Sequence record: SRR31156797_350
Length of the DNA stretch: 56,183 bases
Strand: one strand, 5' to 3'
Part shown: positions 4,177 through 21,634 of the stretch, one piece after another
Layout of the letters: every line of letters starts with the position of its first letter
Numbering within the stretch: position 1 is the stretch's first letter
The notes under the pieces: generated by a model
What the model was told of the DNA's origin: nothing
What the model saw: only the letters and a program-made list of their open reading frames with translations
Databases searched by the model: none
Program-made: the position numbers and the translations under genes

Positions 4177-5268
4177 TTATTTCCGATTCATAACTTCATT
4201 CTGCTTTAAAATGGCTTCTTTATGAATCATTCGAAGTAACTGAGTGGTAAATTTCTCTGATAAACCAAGACTTTTAGCCAAATCAATTCCTCTTTCTCTC
4301 ACTTTTTCCCATCGCTGCAATTGAAGAATTGTCATGTTTTTCTCATGCTTGTATTCTCCTATTTCTTCAACAATGTTCATGCGTTGAGCTAACAACTCAA
4401 TCAATTGAGCGTCTACCGAATCAATTTGATCACGATACTTGTCCAACTGATCAATTTCCTGACCATCTACATCATGCAAACGACACACTAAACTACGAAG
4501 CAGCTTATCTAAATCCTTAGGTGTTAGTTGCTGTTCAGAGTCACTCAAAGCTTCATCGGGATTAAAATGACTTTCTATCATCAATCCGTCCATATTCAAA
4601 TCCATCGCTTTCTGAGCCATTTCATGAATGTATTTTCTGCTTCCTGCGATATGTGAGGGATCACAAATTATAGGTAAATTATGAAATCGTGATTTCAGTT
4701 CTATCGGAATTTCCCACTTGGGAATGTTTCGCAATAAAGTTTTTTCGAAAGGATAAAATCCACGATGTATAGCTGCCAATTTTGAAATTCCAGCCTTGTG
4801 AATTCTTTCCAAGGCACCTATCCATAAATTTATATCAGGATTAATTGGATTTTTCACCATTACCGGCACATTCATTCCTTGTAACGCACTTGCCAATTCC
4901 TGAACCGAAAAAGGATTAGATGTGGTTCTCGCACCTACCCATAAAATATCAACATTATGACGTAAACACATCTCCACATGCTTCGGCGAGGCAACCTCAA
5001 CAGTAGTTAAAAGACCTGTTTCAAGCTTAACTCTATTCAACCATTGAAGAGCATCTTCTCCTCTTCCTTCAAACGAATTGGGACGAGTACGTGGTTTCCA
5101 AACTCCTGCTCTGAAAATCTTCACTTGCTCCACCTTTTTCAATTCATTAGCCGTAGCCAACAACTGTTCTTCCGACTCTGCGCTGCAAGGTCCACTAATC
5201 ACAATAGGGTGAGTATCCAACTTTTTAAACCAATTGTGTATTGGTTTAATATTATCCAAATCGCTCAT
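4177..5268 (-). CDS. Bifunctional DAHP synthase / chorismate mutase (Bacteroidota type)
   Basis: ISGPCSAES, FRAGVWKPRTRP, VGART, KNP, HRGF, DPSH and GLMIESH motifs; C-terminal AroQ domain (RDQIDSVD..L..LLAQRM). Confidence 0.92.
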   Translation of the reverse strand: MSDLDNIKPIHNWFKKLDTHPIVISGPCSAESEEQLLATANELKKVEQVKIFRAGVWKPRTRPNSFEGRGEDALQWLNRVKLETGLLTTVEVASPKHVEMCLRHNVDILWVGARTTSNPFSVQELASALQGMNVPVMVKNPINPDINLWIGALERIHKAGISKLAAIHRGFYPFEKTLLRNIPKWEIPIELKSRFHNLPIICDPSHIAGSRKYIHEMAQKAMDLNMDGLMIESHFNPDEALSDSEQQLTPKDLDKLLRSLVCRLHDVDGQEIDQLDKYRDQIDSVDAQLIELLAQRMNIVEEIGEYKHEKNMTILQLQRWEKVRERGIDLAKSLGLSEKFTTQLLRMIHKEAILKQNEVMNRK

Positions 5269-5288
5269 ATTTTAAAATTTAGGCAGCA

Positions 5289-5296
5289 CAAAATTA
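5289..5296 (-). promoter_or_regulatory. Bacteroidota -7 promoter element for the DAHP synthase gene
   Basis: TAATTTTG on the minus strand, 20 nt upstream of the ATG. Confidence 0.6.
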
Positions 5297-5825
5297 CACT
5301 TTTAAACGAGACTGTAAAATCCTTTAAAAAGAATAAGCAATAGATCAAAACTATTAACTCTCTTTAATCAGAAATATATTGTTTGAATGTTTATTCAACC
5401 TTAACGACAACTACATACAATAATTCCTAATAGCCTATTAGCTCAATAATAAGATGTGGAAAGCCTTTTTATAAAACATTAATATTTATAGTAAACTCAT
5501 TAGCATATAGAAACTTTTTATATCAACATTTAAAAAATCAATAAACATTTAATTAACAGCAGCTTGTACATCCTATAAATTAACACACTCCTACTAAAAA
5601 CACCCTGATTTAAAAGGCTTTTAGCCTTTTCTCGTTAAATCTAGAAGTAATTTTTACTTCTATTACACAAAATGTTAACATTTTAAACACCCACAGCAAG
5701 CACTCTTCTAATTATCGAATTTTCAGCACCTTAACACAACCTTCACCGATATCCTAGTAAATTCACATCAAATTTGTTGATTATTGCAGCTTAATCATCC
5801 CCTATTCCAATTCGATATATTTCTT

Positions 5826-5833
5826 TATATTTG
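5826..5833 (+). promoter_or_regulatory. Bacteroidota -7 promoter element for the respiratory gene cluster
   Basis: TATATTTG matches TAnnTTTG and lies about 180 nt upstream of the ATG at 6014. Confidence 0.5.
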
Positions 5834-6013
5834 AATTACCACGCAAACGTTGGTGAAACATAAAAATTTTAAACAAGTGGCACCTTAAAGCCCTAAAAAC
5901 AAAGAAAGCCCCTTCTTATTTAGAATCGTTTTAAGGAACTGCATTTACTTTTATTTTTAGTGGGTCTTAACTGATAAAATAAGAGTTAATTTGAAAACTA
6001 ACCTTATAGCATA

Positions 6014-6949
6014 ATGAAAGAAGAATCATCAAACCACAGTAGACGAAAATTCCTGAAAAGTTTTGGTATTTCGGTTGGTGCAGCCGGTGTGGTAAGTAGC
6101 TTTTCTCTTTTGGGAGCTGCCAAAGCTGCAGCAAAACAACCTGGAGAAATGGTTAATTTGCTTACTCAAGACGGACAGTTGGTTCAGGTTGATAAAAACC
6201 AACTAAGACCTACTGTTACCGAACCTCTTAATGAACTTCAAGAAAGAGGTAGAGAAGGTATTCCTGGAAAATCCTTCGTTATGGTTATTGATTTAAGCAA
6301 ATGTCGAAATGCAAGAAAATGCATGTCGGCTTGTCAGAATCACCACCAGCTAAGAGCAGACCAACACCACATTAATGTTCTTCAAATGCAGGATGCTGAA
6401 CATACGGCTCCTTATTTTATGCCTAAGCCTTGTCAGCATTGCGATAATCCTCCATGTACAAAAGTTTGCCCGGTAGATGCAACTTTTAAGCGTCAGGATG
6501 GTATTGTTTTAATTGACAATGAAAGATGTATTGGCTGTAGATTCTGTATTGCAGCCTGTCCTTATTCAGCACGTATTTTCCAATGGACAGAACCTAAAGA
6601 TGCTGAAAAATACAAAGATCTAACTTATAATATTGAAGCCAACGTTCCTCAGAAAAAAGGTACAGTTAGTAAATGTCTGTTTAGCGCAGATCGTCTACGC
6701 GAAGATAAACTTCCTTCATGTGTTTCTGCCTGTCCCAATGGGGTTTATTATTTTGGTGACAGAAACGAAGATGCAGTTACAAACGGTACAACTGGCGAAA
6801 CAGTTCGATTCTCGAATCTAATTGAAGAAAACGCAGGTTACACCTTAATGGAAGAATTAGGCACTAAACCTCGTGTATACTACTTGCCTCCAAAAAATAG
6901 AGCCTTTGAGTTTAACGGAGATTTATTAGACGAAGAAAATCTTCACTAG
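6014..6949 (+). CDS. Tat-exported 4Fe-4S dicluster protein (NrfC/DsrO/PsrB family)
   Basis: SRRKFLK twin-arginine signal; four ferredoxin-type motifs (CRNARKCMSAC, CQHCDNPPCTKVCP, CIGCRFCIAACP, CLFS..PSCVSACP); C-terminal LGTKPRVYYL. Confidence 0.9.
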   Translation: MKEESSNHSRRKFLKSFGISVGAAGVVSSFSLLGAAKAAAKQPGEMVNLLTQDGQLVQVDKNQLRPTVTEPLNELQERGREGIPGKSFVMVIDLSKCRNARKCMSACQNHHQLRADQHHINVLQMQDAEHTAPYFMPKPCQHCDNPPCTKVCPVDATFKRQDGIVLIDNERCIGCRFCIAACPYSARIFQWTEPKDAEKYKDLTYNIEANVPQKKGTVSKCLFSADRLREDKLPSCVSACPNGVYYFGDRNEDAVTNGTTGETVRFSNLIEENAGYTLMEELGTKPRVYYLPPKNRAFEFNGDLLDEENLH

Positions 6950-6998
6950 AATACCAATAAAACTATAGATAATTATTTGCCCTAAATAACTAAATCTT

Positions 6999-8339
6999 AT
7001 GAATGACTTACCAAAACAGAAAGAAAACACTCTTTCGTTTGAAAAGATAAAAAAGGACATTCTACATCCAATGCAAAACCATAAGGGTCTTGAACTTTGG
7101 CTTGTATTTCTAATAACAGTAATTAGTGTTTGTGGCTGGGCCTACTATGTGCAATTGCGCGATGGTCTGGGAGTTACAGGCATGCGCGATTACGTTTCCT
7201 GGGGACTGTACATCGCCAACTTTGTATTTTTTGTTGCAGTTAGTTTGGTAGGAATGTTGATTTCCTCCATACTTGGATTGCTACGAATTGATTGGATTAC
7301 TCCAATATCCAGAATTGCTGAGATAATAGCGGTAGCATTTGTAGCCGTTGCTGGCTTAGTAATCGTTCTGGATATGGGTCGCCCCGACAGAGTTTTAAAC
7401 GTAATGATTCACGGTCGTTTTCAATCTCCAATTCTTTGGGATGTCACCGTAATTACCACTTACCTAACAGTTAGTGCTCTTTTATTAATTCTTCCGATGA
7501 TTCCTGATTTGGCTATCTGCAAGAATGAACTAAAAAAGGCATCTCCAATTATGAAGAAGTTATACAACATTCTTTCTTTTGGATACATTAATACGCCAGA
7601 ACAGCACAAGCACCTACATAAAATGATTAGAACCTTAATGGTACTAATTGTTCCTATTGGTTTGGCAATTCACACCGTTACTTCATGGTTGTTTGCGGCA
7701 ACTTTACGTAATGGATGGGATACAACTATTTTTGGTCCTTATTTCGTTGCAGGAGCATTTGTTGCGGGTACCGCTGCCTTAATCATTGCCATGTATTTCT
7801 TCAGAGTTAACTATAAACTCCAAGATTACATCACAGATCTGCAATTCGATAAAATGGGGAAACTATTGGTAGCCGTTTGTTTGGTTTATCTATACTTTAA
7901 CCTTAACGAATTCCTTGTTCCGGGATATAAAATGAAAACCGGTGACGATGTTCACCTTAAGGAGTTATTCTATGGTAACTGGGCTATCATGTTTTGGGCA
8001 TCGCAATTACTAGGTAACATTATTCCAATTATTTTATTAGTAGGCAAGAAATTCCGGAAGCCATTACCAATAATGATTATTTCTCTTTTCATTCTGGCTG
8101 GTGCTTGGTTTAAGCGTTACGTTATTGTAATTCCGACCATGCTTCACCCTCATCTACCAATTCAGAATGTTCCTGAAAATTTCGTTCACTACTACCCTAG
8201 TGCGATAGAGATATCAGTAACAGTATTGAGTTTTGCTTTGGTGCTTCTGATCATTACGATATTGTCGAAAATATTCCCTGTTGTACCTATTGTTGAAACC
8301 GCAGAAAGTAAAGGAATCGAAGTTAAAATTGATGCTTAA
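6999..8339 (+). CDS. NrfD/PsrC/DsrP-family quinol-interacting membrane subunit
   Basis: About 10 TM helices; GLGVTGM..VSWGLYIANFVF, DMGRP, SPILWD, IHTVT and KRYVIVIP motifs. Confidence 0.88.
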   Translation: MNDLPKQKENTLSFEKIKKDILHPMQNHKGLELWLVFLITVISVCGWAYYVQLRDGLGVTGMRDYVSWGLYIANFVFFVAVSLVGMLISSILGLLRIDWITPISRIAEIIAVAFVAVAGLVIVLDMGRPDRVLNVMIHGRFQSPILWDVTVITTYLTVSALLLILPMIPDLAICKNELKKASPIMKKLYNILSFGYINTPEQHKHLHKMIRTLMVLIVPIGLAIHTVTSWLFAATLRNGWDTTIFGPYFVAGAFVAGTAALIIAMYFFRVNYKLQDYITDLQFDKMGKLLVAVCLVYLYFNLNEFLVPGYKMKTGDDVHLKELFYGNWAIMFWASQLLGNIIPIILLVGKKFRKPLPIMIISLFILAGAWFKRYVIVIPTMLHPHLPIQNVPENFVHYYPSAIEISVTVLSFALVLLIITILSKIFPVVPIVETAESKGIEVKIDA

Positions 8340-8351
8340 AACTAAAGAAAG

Positions 8352-9272
8352 ATGAAGAATACAATAAAATCAATAGCTGCTTTATTCCTGATTTTTCTTT
8401 TCTCAGGTTCTGTAGTTAGTGCTCAGGATTGGACGATTCCAGCCTCGGCTAAAAAGAAACAAAATCCTTACGAAGCAACTTCTAAAAATGTAAGTTCTGG
8501 TAAAAAAATATACAATATTCATTGTAAGTCATGTCACGGTGATCCTACAATGGCGAATATGCTTCCTTTGGCTCCAGTAGCTCCTACCGACTTAGGTGCA
8601 CAAAATTTCCTTGTTCAATCGGATGGAGAAATTTACTACAAGGTAAACAAAGGAAAAGGTGCAATGCCAACCTTCGAAAAAACCTTAAGCGACGAAGACA
8701 AGTGGATGGTTTTATCATTCCTTCGTTCATTTGATAAAAACAAAAAAGTTGCTCAAAAAACTGTAGAAGTTAATAATCCTGAGGTTACCGAAGTTAAGTT
8801 GGAACTTAAAGTTGAAGATGCCGACAAAAAGATGATGGCTCAATTAACCGGTTTAACTAAAAAAGGAAAACGAGTAGGTCTTCAAGGTATAGAAATGAGT
8901 TTTCTTGTGAAAAGAAGTTTCGGTTATCTTGATGTATCAGGTGAAGATCCTTATACCAATGAAAAAGGTGAAGTGGAAGTTCTATTCCCTAATGATTTAC
9001 CGGGTGATCGTGAAGGTCAGGTTAATTTGCTTGTAAAAGTCACCGATGATGATTTTTACGGCAAAATGGAAGAAGCCAGAGTGGTTACTTTAGGTGTTCC
9101 AACTGATCCTAAAAACCCACTGGACGAAAGAGCAATGTGGGGGACTAGGGCAAATGCTCCTATCTGGATTATTGTGACTTTTATTGGTGGAGTTCTTTCA
9201 ATTTGGAGTGTAATCTTTTTGGTGTTATTCCAAATGATAAAGCTTCCAAAATTGGCAACTAAAAAAGACTAA
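8352..9272 (+). CDS. Monoheme cytochrome c with C-terminal beta-rich domain and membrane anchor
   Basis: Sec signal; CKSCH heme site; distal Met in GAMPTF; beta-rich domain; hydrophobic helix IWIIVTFIGGVLSIWSVIFLVLF followed by a basic tail. Confidence 0.85.
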   Translation: MKNTIKSIAALFLIFLFSGSVVSAQDWTIPASAKKKQNPYEATSKNVSSGKKIYNIHCKSCHGDPTMANMLPLAPVAPTDLGAQNFLVQSDGEIYYKVNKGKGAMPTFEKTLSDEDKWMVLSFLRSFDKNKKVAQKTVEVNNPEVTEVKLELKVEDADKKMMAQLTGLTKKGKRVGLQGIEMSFLVKRSFGYLDVSGEDPYTNEKGEVEVLFPNDLPGDREGQVNLLVKVTDDDFYGKMEEARVVTLGVPTDPKNPLDERAMWGTRANAPIWIIVTFIGGVLSIWSVIFLVLFQMIKLPKLATKKD

Positions 9273-9406
9273 TCAGATTCTTCATCTTCCTTCCTTTTAG
9301 TTTTTGATGGTCTTCCCAATTTGTAAAGAAGATATCCAATACCGATAAGAAAATGAAGAGCTACTATGCCCACAAGGACATAGATTAAGTTAGAATCTGT
9401 TCTCAT
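9269..9406 (-). CDS. 45-aa single-pass membrane microprotein (not in ORF track)
   Basis: Manual translation MRTDSNLIYVLVGIVALHFLIGIGYLLYKLGRPSKTKRKEDEESD*. One TM helix followed by a basic then acidic tail; AT-rich start context with A at -3; fills the intergenic gap. Confidence 0.7.
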   Translation of the reverse strand: MRTDSNLIYVLVGIVALHFLIGIGYLLYKLGRPSKTKRKEDEESD

Positions 9407-9436
9407 AATTATAAATTAAATTACACGCTCTGCAAG

Positions 9437-11917
9437 ATGGCAAAAATGCAGCAAGATACAAAAAACGCAATCTGTGTTCACTGTGGTGACGACTGTGGCA
9501 AGCATCCCGTAATGTGGGATGACAAAGCATTTTGTTGCAATGGCTGTTCTACAGTTTATCAATTGCTGCACGAAAATGAATTGTGTACGTACTACGATTT
9601 TGAATCCAATCCAGGAATTAAAGTAGAAAGTACCAAGTACAAGGAAAAATTTGCCTTTTTAGATGAAGCTGAAATAGCGGAACAACTGTATGATTTCTCG
9701 GAAGGTAATATTCGAAAAATCTCGCTATACATTCCAGCCATTCATTGTAGTTCCTGTATTTGGCTATTGGAAAATATAAGTATCCTCAACAAAGGAGTGC
9801 TTAAATCAATGGTCAACTTCGTGAAAAAAGAAGTAAGCATTACCTTCGATTCCGATCAAATTAGCATTCGTGAATTGGCTGAATTGCTATCCTCGATTCA
9901 TTACATTCCAGAGATTACTTTGGACAAACTGCAGGAAAAACAAAACAAAGATGTCAATAAGAAAATCCTTTATAAAATAGGGATTGCAGGCTTTTGTTTT
10001 GGAAATATCATGCTGCTTAGTCTGCCTGAGTATGTTCCCGGAAGTGAATATCTGGAATCTCATTTCAAGGATTTCTTTGGCATGATGAACTTCTTCCTGG
10101 TACTACCGGTTTTCTTGTATAGTGGAAATGATTATTTAAAATCAGCTTTTAAAGCCGTAAAACATCGATTCATAAATATTGATGTTCCAATTTCACTTGG
10201 AATTTTAACCTTGTTCTTCCAAAGTTCTTTTGAAATTTTCACAGGAACCGGATCGGGTTATATGGATTCTCTTACAGGTTTGATTTTTTTCCTACTAATT
10301 GGGAAATGGTATCAGAACAGAACCTATCAGGCTTTATCATTCGAAAGAGATTACCGTTCCTATTTTCCTGTTGCTGTTAGCAAGATGGAAGCTGGTGAAG
10401 AGGTAAGTATTCCGATCGAAAAACTGAAAAAGGGAGATATCATTTTGATTAGAAATCAGGAATTGATTCCTGCAGATAGTATTCTGACCAAAGGAGATGC
10501 CCAAATAGATTACAGTTTTGTAACTGGAGAATCGAATCCTGTTTTTAAAGAAGCGGGTGATCAAATATTTGCTGGAGGAAAACAAATGGGAAGTTCTATA
10601 GAATTAACCATTGAAAAAGATGTGGTTCAAAGTCGTTTGACTCAGCTTTGGAATCAATTCGAAGATGAAAACAAAGAAGCCTCGCGATTACATTCAATGA
10701 TCGATAGAATCAGTAAATATTTTACTGCAATAATCATTGCAATTGGAGCAATTGCCGGAATTTACTGGATGATGAACGATGTAAGTAAGGCTGTTTTTGC
10801 ATTTACTTCCGTCTTAATAGTTGCTTGTCCATGCGCTTTGGCACTATCTGCACCTTTCGCTTTGGGTAACACCATGCGCTTAATGGGACGATTGGGCATC
10901 TATCTGAAAGGTTCTGATGTAGCGGAAAAACTAAATTCCATTACTACCATCGTTTTCGATAAAACAGGTACGATTACCCAAGCCGATGAAATGAAAATTT
11001 CATTTAATGGAACTCTCTTAACTGATGAAGATATTATTGCAGTTAAATCTTTGACTAGGCATTCTACCCATATCTTAAGTGCTTCCCTATACGAATACTT
11101 TAAGGATATTAGTCCTGAAACCGTAGAGAATTACCAGGAATTGCCTTCTATGGGAATTTCAGGTAGGGTAAATAATCGTGATATCAAATTGGGTTCAGCC
11201 AAATTTATTTCAGAAGGTATTGCTGAAAGTAAATCCTTAACTACAGAAGTTTATTTATCGGTTGATGGAAATGTCAAAGGACATTTCACATTGAGCAATC
11301 AGTACCGAAGTGGATTGTCTGAGTTAATTGATAGCCTATCATCAAAATATGATCTTCATGTAATATCTGGCGACAATGACTCTGAAAAAGAGAACCTTGT
11401 AAGATTGTTTCCCGATGCCAGCAATATCAGATTCGATCAATCACCTAACGACAAATTGAACTACATTAACCAACTGAAGCAGAAAAATAAAAAAGTGTTG
11501 ATGATTGGTGATGGCTTGAACGATGCCGGTGCATTAAAATCGAGTGATCTGGGAATTTCAATTGCTGATGATGTATATCATTTCTCACCTGCTTGCGATG
11601 CCATTTTAGAATCTTCAAAATTTACGCAATTGGCAAAGTTTTTATCCATCTCAAAAAAGAGTATCTGGATTGTAAAAATGAGTTTTGTACTCTCCTTTTT
11701 GTATAATTTTGTTGGCTTGTATTTCGCCGTACAAGGAGTTTTATCTCCAATTATGGCAGCTTTATTAATGCCAATTAGTTCAGTCTCGATTGTAGCATTT
11801 ACAACCGTGACTACTAACATGATTGCAAAAAGCAAAGAGTCTGAAAATATAAATAAGAGTAAAAATAACAATGAGCTGTCTGCTGTTATTAAAGCAAAAT
11901 CAGTTCAATTAAATTAA
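9437..11917 (+). CDS. ccoI: cbb3 oxidase-associated Cu-type P1B ATPase (CcoI/FixI)
   Basis: N-terminal CVHC..FCCNGC and HCSSC metal sites; TGES, CPC, DKTGT and GDGLND motifs; heads the cco cluster. Confidence 0.9.
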   Translation: MAKMQQDTKNAICVHCGDDCGKHPVMWDDKAFCCNGCSTVYQLLHENELCTYYDFESNPGIKVESTKYKEKFAFLDEAEIAEQLYDFSEGNIRKISLYIPAIHCSSCIWLLENISILNKGVLKSMVNFVKKEVSITFDSDQISIRELAELLSSIHYIPEITLDKLQEKQNKDVNKKILYKIGIAGFCFGNIMLLSLPEYVPGSEYLESHFKDFFGMMNFFLVLPVFLYSGNDYLKSAFKAVKHRFINIDVPISLGILTLFFQSSFEIFTGTGSGYMDSLTGLIFFLLIGKWYQNRTYQALSFERDYRSYFPVAVSKMEAGEEVSIPIEKLKKGDIILIRNQELIPADSILTKGDAQIDYSFVTGESNPVFKEAGDQIFAGGKQMGSSIELTIEKDVVQSRLTQLWNQFEDENKEASRLHSMIDRISKYFTAIIIAIGAIAGIYWMMNDVSKAVFAFTSVLIVACPCALALSAPFALGNTMRLMGRLGIYLKGSDVAEKLNSITTIVFDKTGTITQADEMKISFNGTLLTDEDIIAVKSLTRHSTHILSASLYEYFKDISPETVENYQELPSMGISGRVNNRDIKLGSAKFISEGIAESKSLTTEVYLSVDGNVKGHFTLSNQYRSGLSELIDSLSSKYDLHVISGDNDSEKENLVRLFPDASNIRFDQSPNDKLNYINQLKQKNKKVLMIGDGLNDAGALKSSDLGISIADDVYHFSPACDAILESSKFTQLAKFLSISKKSIWIVKMSFVLSFLYNFVGLYFAVQGVLSPIMAALLMPISSVSIVAFTTVTTNMIAKSKESENINKSKNNNELSAVIKAKSVQLN

Positions 11918-11922
11918 TACAA

Positions 11923-12135
11923 ATGAGTGTATTGTTCGTTTTAATCGGTGTAAGCATGCTTGTAGCAGGAGGTTTCCTTGTTGGATTCCTTTGGGCTGTG
12001 AAGAAGGGACAATATGATGATTCCTATTCTCCTTCGGTTCGAATTCTATTTGACGACCAGGAAAAAGAAACACAAAAGGCAGAGAAGGAAAAAACTGAAA
12101 AAGAAAAAACAACTAAGAAGAACCATAAATCTTAA
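11923..12135 (+). CDS. ccoS: cbb3 oxidase maturation protein CcoS/FixS
   Basis: TM helix followed by FLWAVKKGQYDD...SVRILFDD. Confidence 0.92.
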   Translation: MSVLFVLIGVSMLVAGGFLVGFLWAVKKGQYDDSYSPSVRILFDDQEKETQKAEKEKTEKEKTTKKNHKS

Positions 12136-12139
12136 TTTA

Positions 12140-14269
12140 ATGGAAACACAACACTTTTCGTACGACAACAAAATCGTGAAGTTTTTCGCCTACGCAACCA
12201 TAATTTGGGGTGTAGTTGGAATGTTAGTAGGGCTTTTAGCCGCTCTGCAATTGGCATTCCCGATTTTTAATTTCAATCTGGCATATACCAGTTTTGGTAG
12301 AATTCGCCCTATTCATACCAATGCTGTAATTTTTGCATTTGTAGGAAATGGAATATTCACAGCTGTTTACTATTCGCTTCAGCGTTTACTTAAAGCCAGA
12401 ATGTTTAGCGATAAATTAAGCTGGATCCATTTCTGGGGCTGGCAAGCAATTATTGTTTCTGCTGCCATAACATTTGTTTTGGGTATCACAACCAGTAAAG
12501 AATACGCTGAATTGGAGTGGCCAATTGATATTGCCATTACAATTATTTGGGTGGTTTTTGGTTGGAACATGTTCGGCACCATTCTGAGACGGAGAGCAGA
12601 TCACTTGTATGTTGCCATATGGTTCTATATCGCAACCTTTGTAACCGTTGCCGTGCTTCATATCGGTAACTCTATTGCATTACCATACAGTTGGATTCAG
12701 TCTTATCCGGTATACGCTGGTGTTCAGGATGCACTGGTTCAATGGTGGTACGGACACAATGCGGTTGCATTCTTCCTTACTACTCCTTATTTGGGATTGA
12801 TGTACTACTTTTTACCAAAGGCTGCGAATCGTCCGGTATATTCTTATCGCTTATCGATCATTCACTTTTGGGCACTAGTATTCCTATATATTTGGGCAGG
12901 TCCTCATCACTTACTTTACACTTCTTTGCCTGATTGGGCACAATCATTAGGTGTTGTATTCTCGATTATGCTTCTTGCTCCATCGTGGGGTGGAATGTTC
13001 AACGGTTTACTAACACTTCGTGGTGCCTGGGATAAAGTACGTGACAGTGCTACCTTAAAGTTTATGGTGGTTGCAGTAACCTGCTACGGTATGTCAACAT
13101 TCGAGGGACCAATGATGTCTCTTAAATGGGTTAACTCGCTAACACACTATACCGACTGGACAATTGCTCACGTACACATTGGTGCAATGGGATGGAATGG
13201 ATTCTTAACGTTTGGAATGCTATACTATCTGTTCCCAAAAATGTGGAATACAAAATTGTACTCAGAAAAATTGGCCAATGCTCACTTCTGGATTGGAACT
13301 TTAGGTATGATTTTCTATGCTCTTCCTTTATATTGGGGAGCTGTAGTTCAAACTTTAATGTGGAAAGAATTTACTCCAGACGGATTGTTAGCTTACCCTA
13401 ACTTCCTAGAGACAATTACCCAGATTTTACCAATGTATCACGCAAGAGTATTTGGTGGACTTCTTTATTTCTCTGGATTATTCTTAATGGTTTATAACCT
13501 GTTCAAAACAGCTGCATCGGGTAAATGTTTGGATAACGAAGAGGCTTCAGCTCCAGCAATTGTAACCGATACAAAACGTAGCAAGAGCGAAGGTTTACAC
13601 CGTTGGTTAGAAAGAAAACCAATTCAGTTTATGATTTTAGCTACTGTAGCAATCTTAATTGGTGGTGCATTCGAAATTGTTCCTACTTATCTGATTAAAT
13701 CAAATATTCCTACAATTGAAAGTGTGAAACCATATACTCCACTAGAATTGCAAGGTAGAGATATTTATATCCGTGAAGGTTGTAATACTTGTCACTCGCA
13801 AATGGTTCGTCCGTTCCGTTCGGAAACTGAACGATATGGTGAGTACTCAAAAGCTGGTGAGTCGGTATACAATCATCCACACTTATGGGGATCGAAGCGT
13901 ACCGGACCAGATTTGGCTCGCACCGGAGTACCTGGAGGTAAAATGTACAAAACAAATGTTTGGCATTTCAATCACATGCTCGATCCGCAAAAAATGAATG
14001 CTCAATCTATTATGCCAGCTTATCCATGGCTTATAAAAGATGAATTGGACACATCTGAAACTGCAGCTAAAATTAGAGCAATGATGACCTTAGGAGTTCC
14101 ATATCCGGAAGGATACGATCAAATTGCTAACGATGACTTGAAGAAACAAGCAGAAGAAATTGCTGCTGATTTGAAAAAATCGGGTGTTGAGGTAGCAAGC
14201 GATAAAGAAATTTTAGCTCTGATTGCCTACTTACAACGTTTAGGTAGAGATATTTCAGTACAAGAATAG
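12140..14269 (+). CDS. ccoNO: Fused cbb3-type cytochrome c oxidase subunits I/II (CcoN-CcoO)
   Basis: Start METQHFSY at 12140. RPIHTN, WWYGHNAVAF, GPHH and HVH metal ligands; CcoO part GRDIYIREGCNTCHSQMVRP and WGSKRTGPDL. Confidence 0.96.
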   Translation: METQHFSYDNKIVKFFAYATIIWGVVGMLVGLLAALQLAFPIFNFNLAYTSFGRIRPIHTNAVIFAFVGNGIFTAVYYSLQRLLKARMFSDKLSWIHFWGWQAIIVSAAITFVLGITTSKEYAELEWPIDIAITIIWVVFGWNMFGTILRRRADHLYVAIWFYIATFVTVAVLHIGNSIALPYSWIQSYPVYAGVQDALVQWWYGHNAVAFFLTTPYLGLMYYFLPKAANRPVYSYRLSIIHFWALVFLYIWAGPHHLLYTSLPDWAQSLGVVFSIMLLAPSWGGMFNGLLTLRGAWDKVRDSATLKFMVVAVTCYGMSTFEGPMMSLKWVNSLTHYTDWTIAHVHIGAMGWNGFLTFGMLYYLFPKMWNTKLYSEKLANAHFWIGTLGMIFYALPLYWGAVVQTLMWKEFTPDGLLAYPNFLETITQILPMYHARVFGGLLYFSGLFLMVYNLFKTAASGKCLDNEEASAPAIVTDTKRSKSEGLHRWLERKPIQFMILATVAILIGGAFEIVPTYLIKSNIPTIESVKPYTPLELQGRDIYIREGCNTCHSQMVRPFRSETERYGEYSKAGESVYNHPHLWGSKRTGPDLARTGVPGGKMYKTNVWHFNHMLDPQKMNAQSIMPAYPWLIKDELDTSETAAKIRAMMTLGVPYPEGYDQIANDDLKKQAEEIAADLKKSGVEVASDKEILALIAYLQRLGRDISVQE

Positions 14270-14342
14270 ACATGATAGTAGATGTGAGAATTGATTCAAA
14301 TCCTTATTTCAATTCTCATATCTTATCTAAAATCTGGAAAAT

Positions 14343-14543
14343 ATGAAATTAGTTAGTCATTATTTACGAAGCATATCGGATGTTGGATTTTTTCCAAGCA
14401 TCTCTTTGCTCATCTTCTTTTTATTTTTTGCCGGAATGTTATGGTGGGTTTTCAAAAAAAGCAACAAAACATTCTTTACTGAAATGGAAAGTTATGCTCT
14501 TGACGATGATGGAACAAATTCATCTTCGGAAGCAATAGAATAA
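14343..14543 (+). CDS. ccoQ: cbb3 oxidase subunit CcoQ
   Basis: 66 aa, single TM (SLLIFFLFFAGMLWWV), between ccoO and ccoP. Confidence 0.8.
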   Translation: MKLVSHYLRSISDVGFFPSISLLIFFLFFAGMLWWVFKKSNKTFFTEMESYALDDDGTNSSSEAIE

Positions 14544-14565
14544 AAATGCCCTAAATCACGATAAA

Positions 14566-15132
14566 ATGGAGAAAAAAGATAAATTCCTTGAAGAACACGA
14601 ACACCTAATCAGCGACCATGATTATGATGGCATCAAAGAATTAAATAATCCAATGCCAACCTGGTGGCGTTACCTTTTTTATGCTACTATAGTATTCTCT
14701 GCTGTATACATGTTTCGCTACCATGTTTTTGGCGATGATCTTCAAATTGATGAATACAACAAAGAAATGGCATTAGCCGAAGCAAATAAACCAAAACCTA
14801 AATTTGATGAAAATGCTTTAGTTTTAATGACCGATGCAGCCAATTTGGAAAAGGGGAAAGCCATTTACGATAAGAACTGTATTGCTTGCCATGGAGCATT
14901 AGGAGAAGGAAATGCAATTGGACCAAACCTAACAGATAAATATTGGCTTAATGGTGGTAGCCTTGAAGATGTTTACCAAATTATAAAAGTAGGTAAACCT
15001 TTAAAAGGCATGTTGGCATGGCAAAATCAATTATCACCAGAACAAATGCTACAAGTCTCAAGTTACACTATGAGTCTTGTAGGAACTAATCCTCCTAATG
15101 CAAGAGAAGCTCAAGGTGAACTGATAGAATAA
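14566..15132 (+). CDS. ccoP: cbb3 oxidase subunit III (short, monoheme CcoP)
   Basis: HDYDGIKELNNPMPTWW FixP N-terminus; single CIACH; GPNLTD.YW; GMLAW. Confidence 0.9.
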   Translation: MEKKDKFLEEHEHLISDHDYDGIKELNNPMPTWWRYLFYATIVFSAVYMFRYHVFGDDLQIDEYNKEMALAEANKPKPKFDENALVLMTDAANLEKGKAIYDKNCIACHGALGEGNAIGPNLTDKYWLNGGSLEDVYQIIKVGKPLKGMLAWQNQLSPEQMLQVSSYTMSLVGTNPPNAREAQGELIE

Positions 15133-15137
15133 CTTTT

Positions 15138-15199
15138 AAGCTACAAGCTATAAGCTTCAAGCAAATGAACTTGAGGCTTGAGACTTGAAACTTGAAGCT
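15138..15199. repeat. Opposed heptamer tandem repeats
   Basis: (AAGCTHY)x3+AAGC followed by (RCTTGAR)x4; the two arrays are partly complementary. Confidence 0.7.
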
Positions 15200-15218
15200 A
15201 ATCAATAAACAAAACAAA

Positions 15219-16616
15219 ATGGCTCCTAAAAATCCATATACTGGATATCGCGATCAACTAGCAACACTAAATGAAAGTGGAAAAAGAAATTGGGTATACG
15301 CTCAAAAACCCAAAGGAAAACTATACAACTACCGAAATATAGTAAGTTATACCTTGTTGTTTTTACTTTTTACCATTCCATTTGTAAAGTTGAATGGAGA
15401 GCCCTTTTTGTTATTTAATATTTTAGAGAGAAAATTCATTCTATTTGGCGTTCAATTCTGGCCACAAGATTTTCATCTCTTTCTCTATTCCATGATTACT
15501 CTTTTTGTGTTCGTGGTACTTTTTACTGTAAGTTATGGACGTATTTGGTGTGGATGGACTTGTCCACAAACTGTTTTTCTGGAATTTATATTTCGAAAAA
15601 TCGAATACCTAATTGAAGGAAATCCTAGTCAACAAAGGAAATTGGATGCCCAGTCGATGAATTTCAGTAAGTTCTGGAAAAAGACATTGAAGCTTGGACT
15701 TTTTTACGCCATTTGCTTTTCCATTACAAATGCTTTTCTCTCCTACATTATAGGTGTTGATCAGTTAATTGAAATAATAAAAGCTCCTATCTCCGATCAT
15801 AGAGTTGGTTTTACTATGGCTGTATTATTTTCAGGAGTAATGTTCTTTGTTTTTACGAAACTACGAGAACAAGTTTGTACCATGATTTGTCCTTATGGTA
15901 GATTGCAAGGTGTTCTTCTGGATTCCAATTCCATTGTTGTAGCTTACGACTACAAACGTGGAGAAGAAAGAGCTCCACTTGAAGCTGGTGAAGATAGAGA
16001 GGAAGATGGCAAAGGAGATTGTATTGATTGCTATCAATGTGTTGATGTTTGTCCGACAGGAATTGATGTTCGTGATGGTACTCAATTGGAATGTATCAAC
16101 TGCACTGCCTGTATTGACGAGTGTAACTCGGTAATGGATTGGATAGGAAAACCAAAGGGTTTAATTCGATTCGATTCTGAAAAAAACATTGCCGAAGGCA
16201 GAAAGCAAAAATGGCCTGCTCGAAAAATTGCATATACCGCTGTTCTATGTGTTTTATTAGGAGTTGTAGCAACATTATTTACTTTAAGAACCGACTTAGA
16301 AGCCATTATCCTAAGAACTCCTGGTTTAATGTATCAGCAACAAGAGAATGGTATTAGTAATATGTATAGCTTTAAAATTGTAAATAAAACCAACTTCGAC
16401 ACACCAATATATTTTAAAATTATGAATCATGATGGAGAAATTAAGGTGATTGGTGAAGAGTTTAAAGCTGGAGCGAGTTCGATAAAAGAAGGTGTATTTT
16501 TTGCAATTTTACCACAAAAAGAAATTACCAGCGATAATATTCCAATAACAATAGGAGTATTTGCTGACAAAAATTTAATTGAAGAAGTGGAACTTACCTT
16601 TGTAGGTCCGAATTAA
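15219..16616 (+). CDS. ccoG: cbb3 oxidase accessory Fe-S membrane protein CcoG/FixG
   Basis: GRIWCGWTCPQTVF, REQVCTMICPYGRLQ, CIDCYQCVDVCPTGIDVR and ECINCTACIDEC; start MAPKN. Confidence 0.93.
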   Translation: MAPKNPYTGYRDQLATLNESGKRNWVYAQKPKGKLYNYRNIVSYTLLFLLFTIPFVKLNGEPFLLFNILERKFILFGVQFWPQDFHLFLYSMITLFVFVVLFTVSYGRIWCGWTCPQTVFLEFIFRKIEYLIEGNPSQQRKLDAQSMNFSKFWKKTLKLGLFYAICFSITNAFLSYIIGVDQLIEIIKAPISDHRVGFTMAVLFSGVMFFVFTKLREQVCTMICPYGRLQGVLLDSNSIVVAYDYKRGEERAPLEAGEDREEDGKGDCIDCYQCVDVCPTGIDVRDGTQLECINCTACIDECNSVMDWIGKPKGLIRFDSEKNIAEGRKQKWPARKIAYTAVLCVLLGVVATLFTLRTDLEAIILRTPGLMYQQQENGISNMYSFKIVNKTNFDTPIYFKIMNHDGEIKVIGEEFKAGASSIKEGVFFAILPQKEITSDNIPITIGVFADKNLIEEVELTFVGPN

Positions 16617-16627
16617 GAAATAAGCAT

Positions 16628-17074
16628 ATGAAAAAGTTGAGTTGGGGGACAAAACTAGGACTTGGGGCATCGATATATGTTATTGGTGTATTGATATTTG
16701 TTGGATTTAGCACCACACAAAAAATCAATTTGGTATCGAAAGATTACTATCCTAAAGAAGTGAAATATCAAGAGCAGATTAATAAAATAAAAAATGCTCA
16801 ACAAATGCCGACTTCAATTCTTATAGAACAAGTCGGAGAAAATATTGAAGTGAAATTTCCTAAGGAAATGCATTCTGGAGTTGAAGGAAATATCGTTTTG
16901 TATCGCCCGGCAGATTACGAATCGGATATGAAATATCAAATTGCATTAAACGATAGTGGCGTACATACTTTAAGCACAAATAATCTTTTGAAAGGAAGAT
17001 ATACCGTACAAATCGATTGGAAGCATAATGAAGTAGCTTATTATAAGGAAGAGGCGATTTATTTAAGTAAGTAG
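16628..17074 (+). CDS. ccoH: FixH/CcoH family protein
   Basis: SWG + TM + LVSKDYY..E..YQ; LYRP; position after ccoG. Confidence 0.82.
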   Translation: MKKLSWGTKLGLGASIYVIGVLIFVGFSTTQKINLVSKDYYPKEVKYQEQINKIKNAQQMPTSILIEQVGENIEVKFPKEMHSGVEGNIVLYRPADYESDMKYQIALNDSGVHTLSTNNLLKGRYTVQIDWKHNEVAYYKEEAIYLSK

Positions 17075-17101
17075 ATTGAGGTCGTTAAACAAAAATAATA
17101 A

Positions 17102-17830
17102 ATGGTTTATATATCAGCATTAACTTTAGGACTTTTGGGCAGTTTTCACTGCGTAGGAATGTGTGGTCCAATAGCCTTGGCTATTCCATTGAAAACCGAT
17201 TCATGGTTAGCAAGAATTTTTGGAGGCGTTTTGTACAACCTAGGTAGAGCTATTACTTATGCATTAATGGGTGCCGTATTCGGATTATTGGGTCGCGGAT
17301 TGGTGATGAGTGGTTTTCAGCAATGGATTTCCGTAATTATGGGAGCCATCATGATACTTTCGGTAATCACTCCATCTATCTATAAAAACAGGTTCAATGC
17401 CGATAAAGGTGTTTTCTCATTTGTTGGAAAGGTGAAAATGTCACTCGGAAAGTTGTTTGCAAAACGAAGCTATGGAGCTTTACTAATGATCGGTCTGCTT
17501 AACGGATTACTTCCATGTGGATTGGTTTATTTTGCAATTGCTGGTGCCATTGCAACTGGATCATCAATTAGTGGAAGTCTTTTCATGTTTATTTTCGGAC
17601 TGGGAACTCTACCCATGTTACTTGCCATTTCTTTAATTGGGAACATGATTACTCTGGAATTAAGAAAAAAAATCACCAAATTAATTCCTTATGCAATTGT
17701 GTTTATTGGTGTACTCTTTATACTGCGAGGATTAAGTCTTGGTATTCCTTACCTAAGTCCTCCGGAAAAAGCAATGACCATACCAGTTGAACAAGCTGAT
17801 GAAGAGCAAAAACCTTCTTGCTGTCATTAA
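17102..17830 (+). CDS. DsbD_2 / TauE-like membrane protein of cco clusters
   Basis: GSFHCVGMCGP, YNLGR, NGLLPCGLVY and FGLGT motifs; C-terminal CCH. Confidence 0.85.
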   Translation: MVYISALTLGLLGSFHCVGMCGPIALAIPLKTDSWLARIFGGVLYNLGRAITYALMGAVFGLLGRGLVMSGFQQWISVIMGAIMILSVITPSIYKNRFNADKGVFSFVGKVKMSLGKLFAKRSYGALLMIGLLNGLLPCGLVYFAIAGAIATGSSISGSLFMFIFGLGTLPMLLAISLIGNMITLELRKKITKLIPYAIVFIGVLFILRGLSLGIPYLSPPEKAMTIPVEQADEEQKPSCCH

Positions 17831-17832
17831 AT

Positions 17833-18213
17833 ATGGATAAAGTTGAAGAATACATATACAATTGTGAAGGTGAACAACAAGAAATTTTGTTACAGCTTCA
17901 CAATTTGCTTTTATCTTTCCCTCATGTAGTAGCCAAGTTCAAATACAAAGTTCCATTTTATTACCGCAAATCCTGGGTTTGTTATTTGCTTGCAAATAAA
18001 AATGGAACTGTTGAGTTATCCTTTACAAGAGCTAGAGAGCTAGAAGATGATCTCAAAGTATTAGACTTTAAAGATCGGAAAATGGTAGCCAGTGTTTCCA
18101 TTTCCAAACCAAGCGATATCAATGATAAAACTGTTTCAATCATTCAGGAAGCTCTCATTCTCGATGATACGGTTCCATACACCAAACAGTGGTTTGGAAA
18201 AAGTAAGAAATAG
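17833..18213 (+). CDS. DUF1801-like protein
   Basis: VEEYI..., KFKYKVPFYY..SWVCYL and EAL.LD pattern. Confidence 0.65.
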   Translation: MDKVEEYIYNCEGEQQEILLQLHNLLLSFPHVVAKFKYKVPFYYRKSWVCYLLANKNGTVELSFTRARELEDDLKVLDFKDRKMVASVSISKPSDINDKTVSIIQEALILDDTVPYTKQWFGKSKK

Positions 18214-18296
18214 ATTATTTGCAATCTGTTTTGATGATAAAGTTTAACACTCAAATTTTATCCTTAATTTCGCCTCGAATTTTCGAAGAAACTGTA

Positions 18297-19202
18297 ATGA
18301 ACAAACAAACTATTTTGGTGTATGCCAGTATTATATTGGCTATGTTATTCTGGAGCTTTTCCTTTGTGTGGGTTAAAATCGTTTATCTGGTGTACAATCC
18401 CATTACTACTGTATTTATCCGGTTGATTATTTCATCTGCATTACTTTTCCTTATCGGAAAAATTATTGGGCGTATTCAACCTATCAGCAAAAAGGATAGA
18501 ATGCATTTGGTTTTATTGGCTTTCTTCGAACCTTTCCTTTATTTCATGGGCGAAAGTTTTGGCTTAAAACTGGTTTCATCAACGCTGGGAGCAGTAATCA
18601 TATCCACTATTCCTCTCTTCTCTCCCATAGCAGCTTACTTTTTCCACAAAGAAAAAATAAGTCCTAAAATTATTTTAGGAATCCTTATTTCAATAATGGG
18701 TGTTGGAGTTATCATCTTTAACAAAGAGTTCAATTTAATTGCATCGCCAGTTGGAATTGCTCTCATGTTTGTCGCAGTTGGTGCAGCGGTAGGTTATTCA
18801 ATTGTATTAAAAAACCTGGCATCAAAATACAATCCTCTTACCTTAATAACCTATCAAAATTTAATAGGAATCGCATTCTTCATGCCTTTGTTTTTTGTAT
18901 TCGATTGGAATCATTTTATTAATGCAGAACCAACAACCGAAGTTTGGATTGCCATAATAGAGCTTGCTATTTTTGCATCATCTTTGGCATTTATGTGCTT
19001 CACTTATGCTTTGAAATATTTAGGGATAAACAAATCCAACATCTTCATTAATGCCATTCCCGTTTTTACTGCTATTTTTGCATACTTTGTGTTAAACGAA
19101 ACGCTTAGCTTTCAAAAAATGGTAGGCATTTCCATTGTGATTTCAGGTTTGTTTTTATCTCAAGCCAAATTAAAGATGTTTAAAATAGGTGTTAAAAAAT
19201 GA
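18297..19202 (+). CDS. EamA/DMT family transporter
   Basis: 10 TM helices in two repeats; FWSFSF, R in TM2, KEK loop, LNE.L. Confidence 0.88.
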   Translation: MNKQTILVYASIILAMLFWSFSFVWVKIVYLVYNPITTVFIRLIISSALLFLIGKIIGRIQPISKKDRMHLVLLAFFEPFLYFMGESFGLKLVSSTLGAVIISTIPLFSPIAAYFFHKEKISPKIILGILISIMGVGVIIFNKEFNLIASPVGIALMFVAVGAAVGYSIVLKNLASKYNPLTLITYQNLIGIAFFMPLFFVFDWNHFINAEPTTEVWIAIIELAIFASSLAFMCFTYALKYLGINKSNIFINAIPVFTAIFAYFVLNETLSFQKMVGISIVISGLFLSQAKLKMFKIGVKK

Positions 19203-20938: not shown

Positions 20939-21634
20939 ATGGATATATCTGAAAAGAAACTAATTATAGCAATTGACGGTCATTCGTCATGCGGAAAAAG
21001 CACAGTCGCCAAAGATTTGGCAAAAAAAATAAATTACACCTATATTGATAGTGGTGCAATGTACCGCGTTGTAACTTTATTTGCAATGCGCAACAATTTG
21101 ATTTCTTCCGATGTTGTAGATGAAAACAAATTGGCTCATCATATCGATCAGGTAAGCATTTCGTTTAAATACAACAATGAAAAGCAACGTCACGAAACCT
21201 ATCTTAACGGAGAATTGGTTGAAGATGAAATCAGAAGTCTTGACGTTTCGAACAATGTAAGTTTGATTGCTACAATCAAATTTGTACGTGAGAAAATGGT
21301 TGCTTTTCAACGTGAATTGAGCAAAGCTGGTGGAGTAATCATGGACGGTAGAGATATCGGAACTGTAGTTTTCCCTAATGCTGAATTGAAAATTTTCATG
21401 ACTGCTGATGTAGAAGTAAGAGCCATCCGCCGTTTCAAAGAATTGAAAGAAAAAGGAGAAGATGTTTCCTTAGATGCAATTCGTGAAAATGTTCAGAAAA
21501 GAGATTATATCGACGAAAATCGTGATGAAAGTCCATTACGCAAGGCCGATGATGCAATAGTTCTTAACAATAGCAATCTTACTCCAGCAGAGCAGTTGGA
21601 TTGGATTGTAGAAAGAATGAATGAGATTAAATAA
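20939..21634 (+). CDS. cmk: Cytidylate kinase
   Basis: IAIDGHSSCGKST, DSGAMYR, MDGRDIGTVVFP and RDYID..R..SPL motifs. Confidence 0.96.
   Translation: MDISEKKLIIAIDGHSSCGKSTVAKDLAKKINYTYIDSGAMYRVVTLFAMRNNLISSDVVDENKLAHHIDQVSISFKYNNEKQRHETYLNGELVEDEIRSLDVSNNVSLIATIKFVREKMVAFQRELSKAGGVIMDGRDIGTVVFPNAELKIFMTADVEVRAIRRFKELKEKGEDVSLDAIRENVQKRDYIDENRDESPLRKADDAIVLNNSNLTPAEQLDWIVERMNEIK

Follow-up and report, generated by a model that had tools for sequence, protein, structure and literature searches.

In the textbook view, electrons pass from quinol to cytochrome c oxidases through either the bc1 complex or alternative complex III (ACIII). This report concerns a three-gene module, referred to here as the trio, which encodes an iron-sulfur (FeS) protein, a membrane protein of the NrfD family, and a membrane-anchored c-type cytochrome. 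It directly precedes the genes of a cbb3-type oxidase on a 56,183-nucleotide stretch of DNA (the window; sequence record SRR31156797_350). The window is 100% identical to a contig of an uncultured Marinifilum sp. (Marinifilaceae, Bacteroidales), and its base composition is even, at about 32-40% G+C.

Proteins related to those of the trio have been described in several settings. In a preprint on the DsrMKJOP complex, menadiol is placed in DsrP less than 8 Å from a DsrO cluster, beside a strictly conserved Asp that corresponds to a His in ActC of ACIII (bioRxiv 10.64898/2026.08.25.746951). A report on Melioribacter roseus describes an FeS protein and an NrfD protein, NrfCD, that donate electrons to periplasmic cytochromes c although no molybdoenzyme accompanies them (PMC3534657), and modules of the NrfCD type that feed periplasmic cytochromes are an established concept (PMC3534657, PMC8076601). 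A TMH1-DsrOhPh-tetrahaem locus of cable bacteria is proposed as a 'candidate alternative complex III' (PMC11976967, PMC13047784). A literature search found no description of the Bacteroidales module or of its oxidase link; subscription journals and supplements lay outside that search, and sequences of this kind may be listed in the supplements of PMC8076601 and PMC13047784.

Judging from sequence and gene context, it is rather likely that the proteins of the trio assemble into a small complex in the membrane that takes electrons from menaquinol and hands them to its own tethered cytochrome c, which in turn feeds the neighbouring cbb3 oxidase. The trio would then probably act as a respiratory complex III, and seemingly does so in roughly half of the sampled Bacteroidales species that have an oxidase.

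Subunits of the trio

The membrane subunit matches PF03916 at 129 bits (gathering cut-off 25.8) and has ten predicted helices, being of the cofactor-less type. Its best NCBIfam match is DsrP, at 148.8 bits against a cut-off of 350, with QrcD at 67 bits; NCBIfam contains no ActC model. Five matches to solved structures were obtained at E<=0.01. Four are ActC chains (6lod_C, 6btm_C, 8k9e_C, and 6f0k_C), with E values from 2.5e-46 for 6lod_C to 5.7e-44, and the fifth is ActF (6f0k_F, E 0.0084); no PsrC chain was among the matches at this threshold. A Protein Atlas search with the same protein returned generic NrfD clusters only.

Trees were built from NrfD-like proteins of Bacteroidota genomes, including the DsrP of Chlorobia, one with 51 rows (quick search) and one with 48 rows (careful search). 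The NrfD proteins linked to cco, cox, and nap genes grouped in a single clade (support 100/99). This clade and a more distant module type, described below, were jointly sister to the clade holding ActC (95/87), with the trio proteins placed outside the latter. Chlorobia DsrP lay outside the group formed by the trio and ActC (99/95), and short NrfD proteins formed the outgroup. At the column of the quinol pocket, the trio has Asp125 (in the motif DMGRPDR), DsrP also has Asp, and the 18 ActC rows have His; Asp125 is invariant in the 12 homologues compared. By this placement, the subunit belongs to neither ACIII nor Dsr and stands in a clade of its own. Trio-type NrfD sequences are also found within frames of 758-775 amino acids (aa) in three genomes (G610 C1:2292066-2293355, G358 C4:63321-64601, and G576 C27:34193-35488), which suggests that the membrane subunit is fused to the cytochrome in some species.

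The FeS subunit (311 aa) carries a twin-arginine (Tat) motif, SRRKFLK, and 4Fe-4S dicluster domains, with Fer4 domains only. DsrO is its best NCBIfam match (181.2 bits against a cut-off of 200), and QrcC scores 123 bits; the filter recovered no DsrO reference sequences from the regions flanking DsrP in Chlorobia. Among solved structures, the best matches are PsrB (2vpw_B, 3e-29) and ActB (6f0k_B, 4e-20), whose C-terminal part is aligned, over residues 837-1022 of the 1039-residue chain. Fourteen cysteines, arranged in four groups, are invariant in 12 homologues. Groups I and IV are without their second Cys, having Ala (CxxAxxC) and Ser (CxxS) there, while the ActB of Marinifilum is without it in group III.

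The third protein has a signal-like N-terminal helix and a hydrophobic C-terminal one; its only CxxCH is at residue 58. Residues C58, C61, H62, and M105 are invariant in 12 homologues and are candidate haem ligands. An AlphaFold2 model (mean pLDDT 68) contains a signal helix (residues 2-21), a class I cytochrome domain (31-127), a beta-sandwich (145-245), and a long C-terminal helix (271-302). By sequence and fold search, the relatives of the cytochrome domain are c552, c6, and ActE, although the likeness to ActE is weak by sequence (E 3e-4); 6lod_E ranked second by fold. The fold search found no partner for the beta-sandwich, and the stalk and C-terminal anchor were without counterpart among the matches. 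Public annotations of the protein read 'c-type cytochrome' or similar only. A profile search gave 244 representatives at E<=1e-30, the best 150 of which were mostly full-length, at about 290-320 residues; for ten distant relatives, look-up named Saccharicrinis carchari alone, under the label 'cbb3 subunit III'. A complex prediction with FeS residues 70-311, the NrfD subunit, and cytochrome residues 25-306 scored 0.81, against 0.65 for a control in which NrfD was replaced, a result that counts neither way for binding.

Linkage to terminal reductases

Linkage was surveyed in 57 loci collected by a peptide-pattern scan, with one genome per species. The trio is intact in these loci wherever the flanks allow it to be seen, and in 51 of the 57 a catalytic oxidase gene lies directly downstream: cco in 22, cox (caa3) in 28, and both in one. 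Five of the other six are too short to judge, and one has neither oxidase. The cco-linked loci belong to Marinifilum, Labilibaculum, Ancylomarina, and relatives. In the caa3 type, Pfam matches show that the trio is followed by a 128-aa protein, SCO1, COX1, COX3, COX4, COX2-cytochrome c, and CtaB. The protein following the trio cytochrome and preceding SCO1 (about 128 aa; for example L026 12319-12705) is conserved at the same place in 30 caa3-type loci; it has no meaningful Pfam match at E<=1 and is absent from cco-linked loci.

The linkage extends beyond oxidases. In M. flexuosum, a second trio, with an NrfD 58% identical, stands directly before napA-G-H-B-D (L096, G002 C1:559000-578500, 7993-17208), so that this species has separate trio paralogues for cbb3 and for nap. 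A more distant four-gene module, found in many Bacteroidota, consists of an FeS protein, an NrfD protein, a family-less protein (about 290 aa), and a small monohaem cytochrome c (about 135 aa) (L097-L102, L106-L108, and L119-L123). The proteins of about 290 aa have no meaningful Pfam match at E<=1. Together with its neighbours DUF5777, a membrane beta-barrel, and EB_dh, a haem-domain protein, this module may form a quinol route towards the outer membrane.

Distribution in Bacteroidales

For an order-wide view, 301 genomes were drawn evenly from Bacteroidales species. The trio was called by NrfD at E<=1e-100 and >=49% identity, and the oxidase by COX1 at E<=1e-100. The trio was carried by 60 genomes, ActD by 52, a haem-copper oxidase by 100, and cytochrome b by 20. 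An oxidase was present in 56 of the 60 trio carriers (odds ratio 63). Among the 100 oxidase carriers, 48 had the trio only, 39 ActD only, eight both, and five neither (odds ratio 0.02); both odds ratios come from Fisher tests, which ignore shared ancestry, and many of the assemblies are incomplete. Put the other way, ActD is absent from 48 of the 56 genomes with trio and oxidase, and the trio from 39 of the 47 with ActD and oxidase. Cytochrome b was found in three of the 60 trio carriers, all in the class with both modules, and in none of the 48 trio-only genomes. In two of the five genomes with neither, a cytochrome b gene adjoins COX1.

This near mutual exclusion among oxidase carriers argues for an equivalent function of the trio and the ActD-marked complex. 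The listed coordinates place a COX1 gene within about 6 kb of the trio gene, on one contig, in at least 31 of the 60 cases. Where both modules occur, there is one for each oxidase: M. flexuosum combines trio-cbb3 with ACIII-caa3, and two further genomes (G304 and G533) each combine trio-caa3 with ACIII-caa3.

The oxidase cluster and the gap before it

Eleven genes on the plus strand make up the locus, the trio followed by ccoI-S-NO-Q-P-G-H-dsbD2 (Table 1), with spacings of 49 and 12 bases inside the trio. The initial annotation had described three co-oriented, closely spaced genes ahead of this cluster, and its coordinates hold, except that it missed a small open reading frame (ORF) on the minus strand; it was also right that the FeS protein has its own Tat signal. 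Its further observation, that no partner enzyme of an NrfC/NrfD pair and no ACIII partner is encoded in the window, agrees with a Pfam scan of 50 window ORFs, among which there was no molybdopterin protein, multihaem cytochrome, ActA, ActD, ActF, Rieske protein, or cytochrome b. DsrM, DsrK, and the trihaem DsrJ were not found in the window either. The window's other larger ORFs, 33 in number, are of the housekeeping kind; one ORF of 615 aa (21634-23481) fuses a LytB (IspH) domain to a phosphofructokinase domain.

Table 1. Features of the trio and cco locus, with positions in the window
Feature	Coordinates	Strand	Evidence
Tat FeS subunit, NrfC/DsrO-like, 311 aa	6014..6949	+	SRRKFLK motif; Fer4_11 E 7e-22
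NrfD-family membrane subunit, 446 aa	6999..8339	+	PF03916 E 4e-37; ten hydrophobic segments
Anchored monohaem cytochrome c, 306 aa	8352..9272	+	PF13442 E 2e-12; CxxCH at residue 58
Single-helix ORF, 45 aa	9269..9406	-	ORF listing; tblastn conservation
ccoI, copper-translocating P-type ATPase	9437..11917	+	E1-E2_ATPase, HMA, ATPase-cat_bd; TIGR01525 353 bits, above cut-off
ccoS	11923..12135	+	PF03597 E 7e-22; TIGR00847 above cut-off
Fused ccoNO, cbb3 catalytic and monohaem subunit	12014..14269	+	NF011053 1244 bits (cut-off 1080); COX1 and FixO
ccoQ	14343..14543	+	PF05545 29.5 bits (cut-off 29)
ccoP, short monohaem form, 188 aa	14566..15132	+	FixP_N and one cytochrome domain
ccoG	15192..16616	+	TIGR02745 416 bits, above cut-off
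FixH-like	16628..17074	+	PF05751
DsbD_2	17102..17830	+	PF13386

The neighbouring cluster encodes a cbb3-type oxidase: CcoN and CcoO score above their cut-offs (TIGR00780 and TIGR00781 for the fused ccoNO, which has one CxxCH, at residue 590), and they are joined by ccoQ, ccoP, and ccoGHIS. CcoP aligns with positions 10-203 of the 285 in TIGR00782 at 109 bits, under the cut-off of 180, because it has one haem domain, with one CxxCH, and not two. The longest ccoNO ORF shares 122 bases with ccoS and its family match begins only at residue 43, so the true start is probably later than that of the longest ORF.

The minus-strand ORF lies in the interval of 164 bases between the cytochrome c gene and ccoI. 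It has the same place and strand in Marinifilaceae loci (Marinifilum, Labilibaculum, and Ancylomarina), with 51-91% identity by tblastn, and its frame is preserved through many synonymous changes at 56-84% nucleotide identity; it has no meaningful family match (Pfam, E<=1). A sigma-70 scan of positions 5200-18400 gave fewer promoter-like sites than shuffled sequences did, with a model that is uninformative for Bacteroidota. A scan of the same region, likewise uninformative for this phylum, showed no terminator-like site in the gap at 9273-9436.

Evidence from RNA consisted of assembled contigs of four RNA-labelled runs (10-16% of words), which cover parts of the region. The junction of the NrfD and cytochrome genes (7969-9152) is spanned by a contig from a relative, about 93% identical, and another contig from relatives bridges the end of the cytochrome gene, the gap, and 1 kb of ccoI (9131-10442). 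An exact-match contig covers 9273-9486, the interval of the minus-strand ORF and of the beginning of ccoI. These contigs give weak support for expression of the region, since they reveal neither strand nor a single transcript and since DNA can occur in such libraries.

Proposed function and alternatives

Gene content, conservation, linkage, and a distribution complementary to that of ACIII are established here; from these features we infer that the three proteins form a complex, that it oxidises quinol, that electrons run from quinol outwards, and that they are delivered to the cbb3 oxidase. Menaquinol would bind a periplasm-facing pocket of the NrfD subunit, which carries Asp125 in the DsrP-type motif, and its electrons would pass along the FeS chain of the Tat-exported subunit to the single haem of the cytochrome c, which would be held at the membrane by its C-terminal helix on a beta-sandwich stalk. 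The cytochrome would then pass the electrons to the cbb3 oxidase with its short, one-haem CcoP, and the quinol protons would be released to the periplasm. We infer that this short CcoP may fit a tethered donor that stands in for the outer of the two haem domains normally found in CcoP. More widely, the module family may comprise dedicated donors, each serving the periplasm-fed terminal reductase encoded with it, which is cbb3 in this locus, caa3 in the majority of other Bacteroidales, and Nap for the Marinifilum paralogue. In Marinifilum, the trio would work beside ACIII-caa3 and a Rieske/cytochrome b complex, and not instead of them. A more ambitious version would make the trio a third class of complex III, a three-subunit menaquinol:cytochrome c oxidoreductase that replaces ACIII and bc1 in about half of oxidase-bearing Bacteroidales, forms a dedicated supercomplex with one particular terminal enzyme (cbb3, caa3, or Nap) by docking of its tethered cytochrome, and conserves energy through its NrfD subunit; this is possible but, in our estimate, doubtful.

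Several observations weigh against a role of the trio as menaquinol oxidase for the cbb3 enzyme. The ACIII and bc content of the window's organism was judged from the genomes of relatives, and ActD (PF11821) is present in 14 of the 15 other Marinifilaceae genomes searched. M. flexuosum has actA-B-C-D-F-E about 42 kb from the trio, convergent with a caa3 operon. On a complete Marinifilum chromosome, about 4 kb separate the end of actB-C-D-F-E from the trio downstream, with an IS1634 transposase and a DAHP synthase gene between. (The IS1634-family transposase lies at L007 5824-6909, and the gene order upstream of the trio varies among Marinifilum genomes.) The phylum Bacteroidota is usually said to lack bc complexes. 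A strong cytochrome b match was nevertheless obtained in all three Marinifilum genomes searched (G002, G003, and G313), and the complete chromosome G003 encodes cytochrome b and a Rieske protein together with a multihaem cytochrome fused to TPR repeats. That cluster (L109, G003 C1:753000-768000) spans 7230-11287; a like cluster in a caa3-linked Bacteroidales genome (L110) has the TPR repeats encoded by an adjacent gene, and the cytochrome b of these clusters has about 410-430 aa. Because relatives have both ACIII and Rieske/cytochrome b, the trio is not needed here as the link from quinol to cytochrome c. In 25 genomes of the caa3-linked set, ActD was found in one and cytochrome b in 14, leaving ten with neither ActD nor a strong cytochrome b match.

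The remaining points on this side are of other kinds. The cluster content of the FeS subunit is uncertain because only 14 of its cysteines are invariant. Four of the 60 trio genomes show no oxidase, and the order-wide association shares the limits of its tests and assemblies. The distant relatives, with NrfD proteins 34-53% identical, stand beside DUF5777 and EB_dh, not beside oxidases. Whether the trio and cco are co-transcribed as a single operon is uncertain, because a conserved opposite-strand gene sits between the trio and ccoI.

The initial annotation had presented the trio as distinct from both bc1 and full ACIII, and comparative genomics supports this and shows a conserved unit, with a separate NrfD clade and no ActA, ActD, or ActF; the NrfD phylogeny that it proposed as a check likewise gives a clade of its own, sister to ActC, with Chlorobia DsrP and short NrfD proteins outside. 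Its expectation of linkage to cco stands as regards linkage, with an oxidase downstream in 51 of the 57 loci and cco in 23. The specificity for cbb3 does not, because most relatives head caa3 operons and the M. flexuosum paralogue heads napAGHBD. Similarly, the expectation that trio carriers have neither ActD nor bc is borne out by the 48 of 100 oxidase genomes with the trio only and fails in the Marinifilaceae relatives, where ActD occurs in 14 of 15 genomes and cytochrome b in the three Marinifilum genomes searched. Its premise that the trio is needed because ACIII and bc1 are missing is not supported, as ActD, a full actABCDFE, and cytochrome b/Rieske genes occur in close relatives.

The spread of neighbours could also mean that the trio is a general periplasmic hub, oxidising quinol while its cytochrome feeds any reductase that depends on c-type cytochromes (Nap, Nir, Nor, Nos, and both oxidases), with adjacency to cbb3 reflecting co-regulation and no dedicated partnership. 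A trio paralogue does head nap, relatives head caa3, distant relatives have other neighbours, and the opposite-strand gene separates the trio from ccoI. However, cbb3 and nap each have a paralogue of their own in M. flexuosum, each module is matched to a single oxidase in G304 and G533, and the trio cytochrome is membrane-tethered, not soluble, and we regard a general hub as unlikely. The copper-handling proteins encoded next to the trio (ccoI here, SCO1 in the caa3 loci), with CcoG and DsbD_2 in the same cluster, would suit a part in assembly or maintenance, in which the trio supplies periplasmic reducing power for copper or haem maturation of the oxidase and carries no respiratory flux. The nap-linked paralogue is without such neighbours, however, and most genomes with ACIII and an oxidase (39 of 47) do without the trio, which fits a substitute for ACIII better; a role in maturation alone therefore seems very unlikely.

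Electrons might instead run in reverse, from a periplasmic donor through cytochrome c to menaquinone, as in a quinone reductase of the Qrc kind. The NCBIfam matches include QrcC (123 bits) and QrcD (67 bits), and NrfD-type modules are known to run in either direction (PMC8076601). Each conserved neighbour of the trio, however, is a terminal reductase that accepts electrons, and the complementarity with ACIII points to quinol oxidation. The potential of a Met/His class I cytochrome c is, moreover, expected to lie far above that of menaquinone, and we give the reverse direction little credence. It is least probable, indeed hard to believe, that the trio supplies spare or alternative subunits for an ACIII whose genes lie elsewhere in the genome. 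Its membrane subunit does have ActC chains as best solved matches, and one Marinifilum genome has ACIII about 4 kb upstream, but 48 of the 56 genomes with trio and oxidase have no ActD, the NrfD proteins form a separate clade, and the trio departs from ActC in the quinol-pocket residue and from ActB in the Cys pattern.

If the trio does oxidise menaquinol for its neighbouring oxidase, the consequences would be wide. Nearly half of the oxidase-bearing Bacteroidales genomes (48 of 100) show neither ACIII nor cytochrome b, and all 48 carry the trio, so that oxygen respiration would have to be re-read in a major group of bacteria from sediment, wastewater, and gut-related settings, whose genomes are often scored as being without complex III. 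The trio would also offer a minimal model of the coupling between quinol chemistry and electron transfer in proteins of the NrfD type. Since the cbb3-linked form is found in cultured genera (Marinifilum, Labilibaculum, and Ancylomarina), the idea is testable there, and since the same genomes have ACIII-caa3 and a nap-linked paralogue, the donor modules could be compared in one cell.

Comparison with known systems

The trio shares with quinol dehydrogenases of the NrfCD/PsrBC type, such as that of Melioribacter roseus, the use of an FeS protein and a cofactor-less NrfD protein as donor to periplasmic cytochromes c. It differs in that their NrfD is short (about 315 aa; L058-L060) and forms the outgroup of the tree, and the trio membrane subunit has no PsrC match at E<=0.01. 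The cable bacteria locus, compared by its description, agrees with the trio in architecture and in proposed role, combining a c-type cytochrome with an FeS protein like DsrO and a membrane protein like DsrP, and having no catalytic subunit. A small single-helix gene adjoins both loci, although that of the trio is on the opposite strand. The cytochrome of cable bacteria is a tetrahaem protein with His/His ligation, whereas that of the trio is monohaem, with one CxxCH and an invariant Met105, and the passages on that locus mention no oxidase linkage.

DsrO and DsrP of DsrMKJOP are the best NCBIfam matches of the trio, which shares the motif D-x-GRPDR with the Asp of the menadiol pocket (bioRxiv 10.64898/2026.08.25.746951), and the electron path there also runs from quinol through an FeS protein to cytochrome c. 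Against this likeness, both scores fall under the equivalog cut-offs (181.2 against 200 and 148.8 against 350), the window has no DsrM, DsrK, or trihaem DsrJ, DsrP is about 385 aa long where the trio protein has 446, and the DsrP of Chlorobia lies outside the group of trio plus ActC.

ACIII (ActABCDEF; 6BTM, 6F0K, 6LOD, and 8K9E) differs from the trio in having ActA, ActD, ActF, and the molybdopterin-like half of ActB. The NrfD protein of the trio belongs to a sister clade, with Asp for the His of ActC; its FeS protein has Cys gaps in groups I and IV where ActB has one in group III; and its cytochrome has a beta-sandwich stalk and a C-terminal helix. The two are nevertheless alike in their ten-helix quinol subunit of the NrfD family and in an FeS protein that resembles the C-terminal half of ActB; they may also have in common a monohaem class I cytochrome c, whose likeness to ActE in the trio is weak by sequence. 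Both are encoded beside cytochrome c oxidases, and the distribution of the trio is complementary to that of ACIII.

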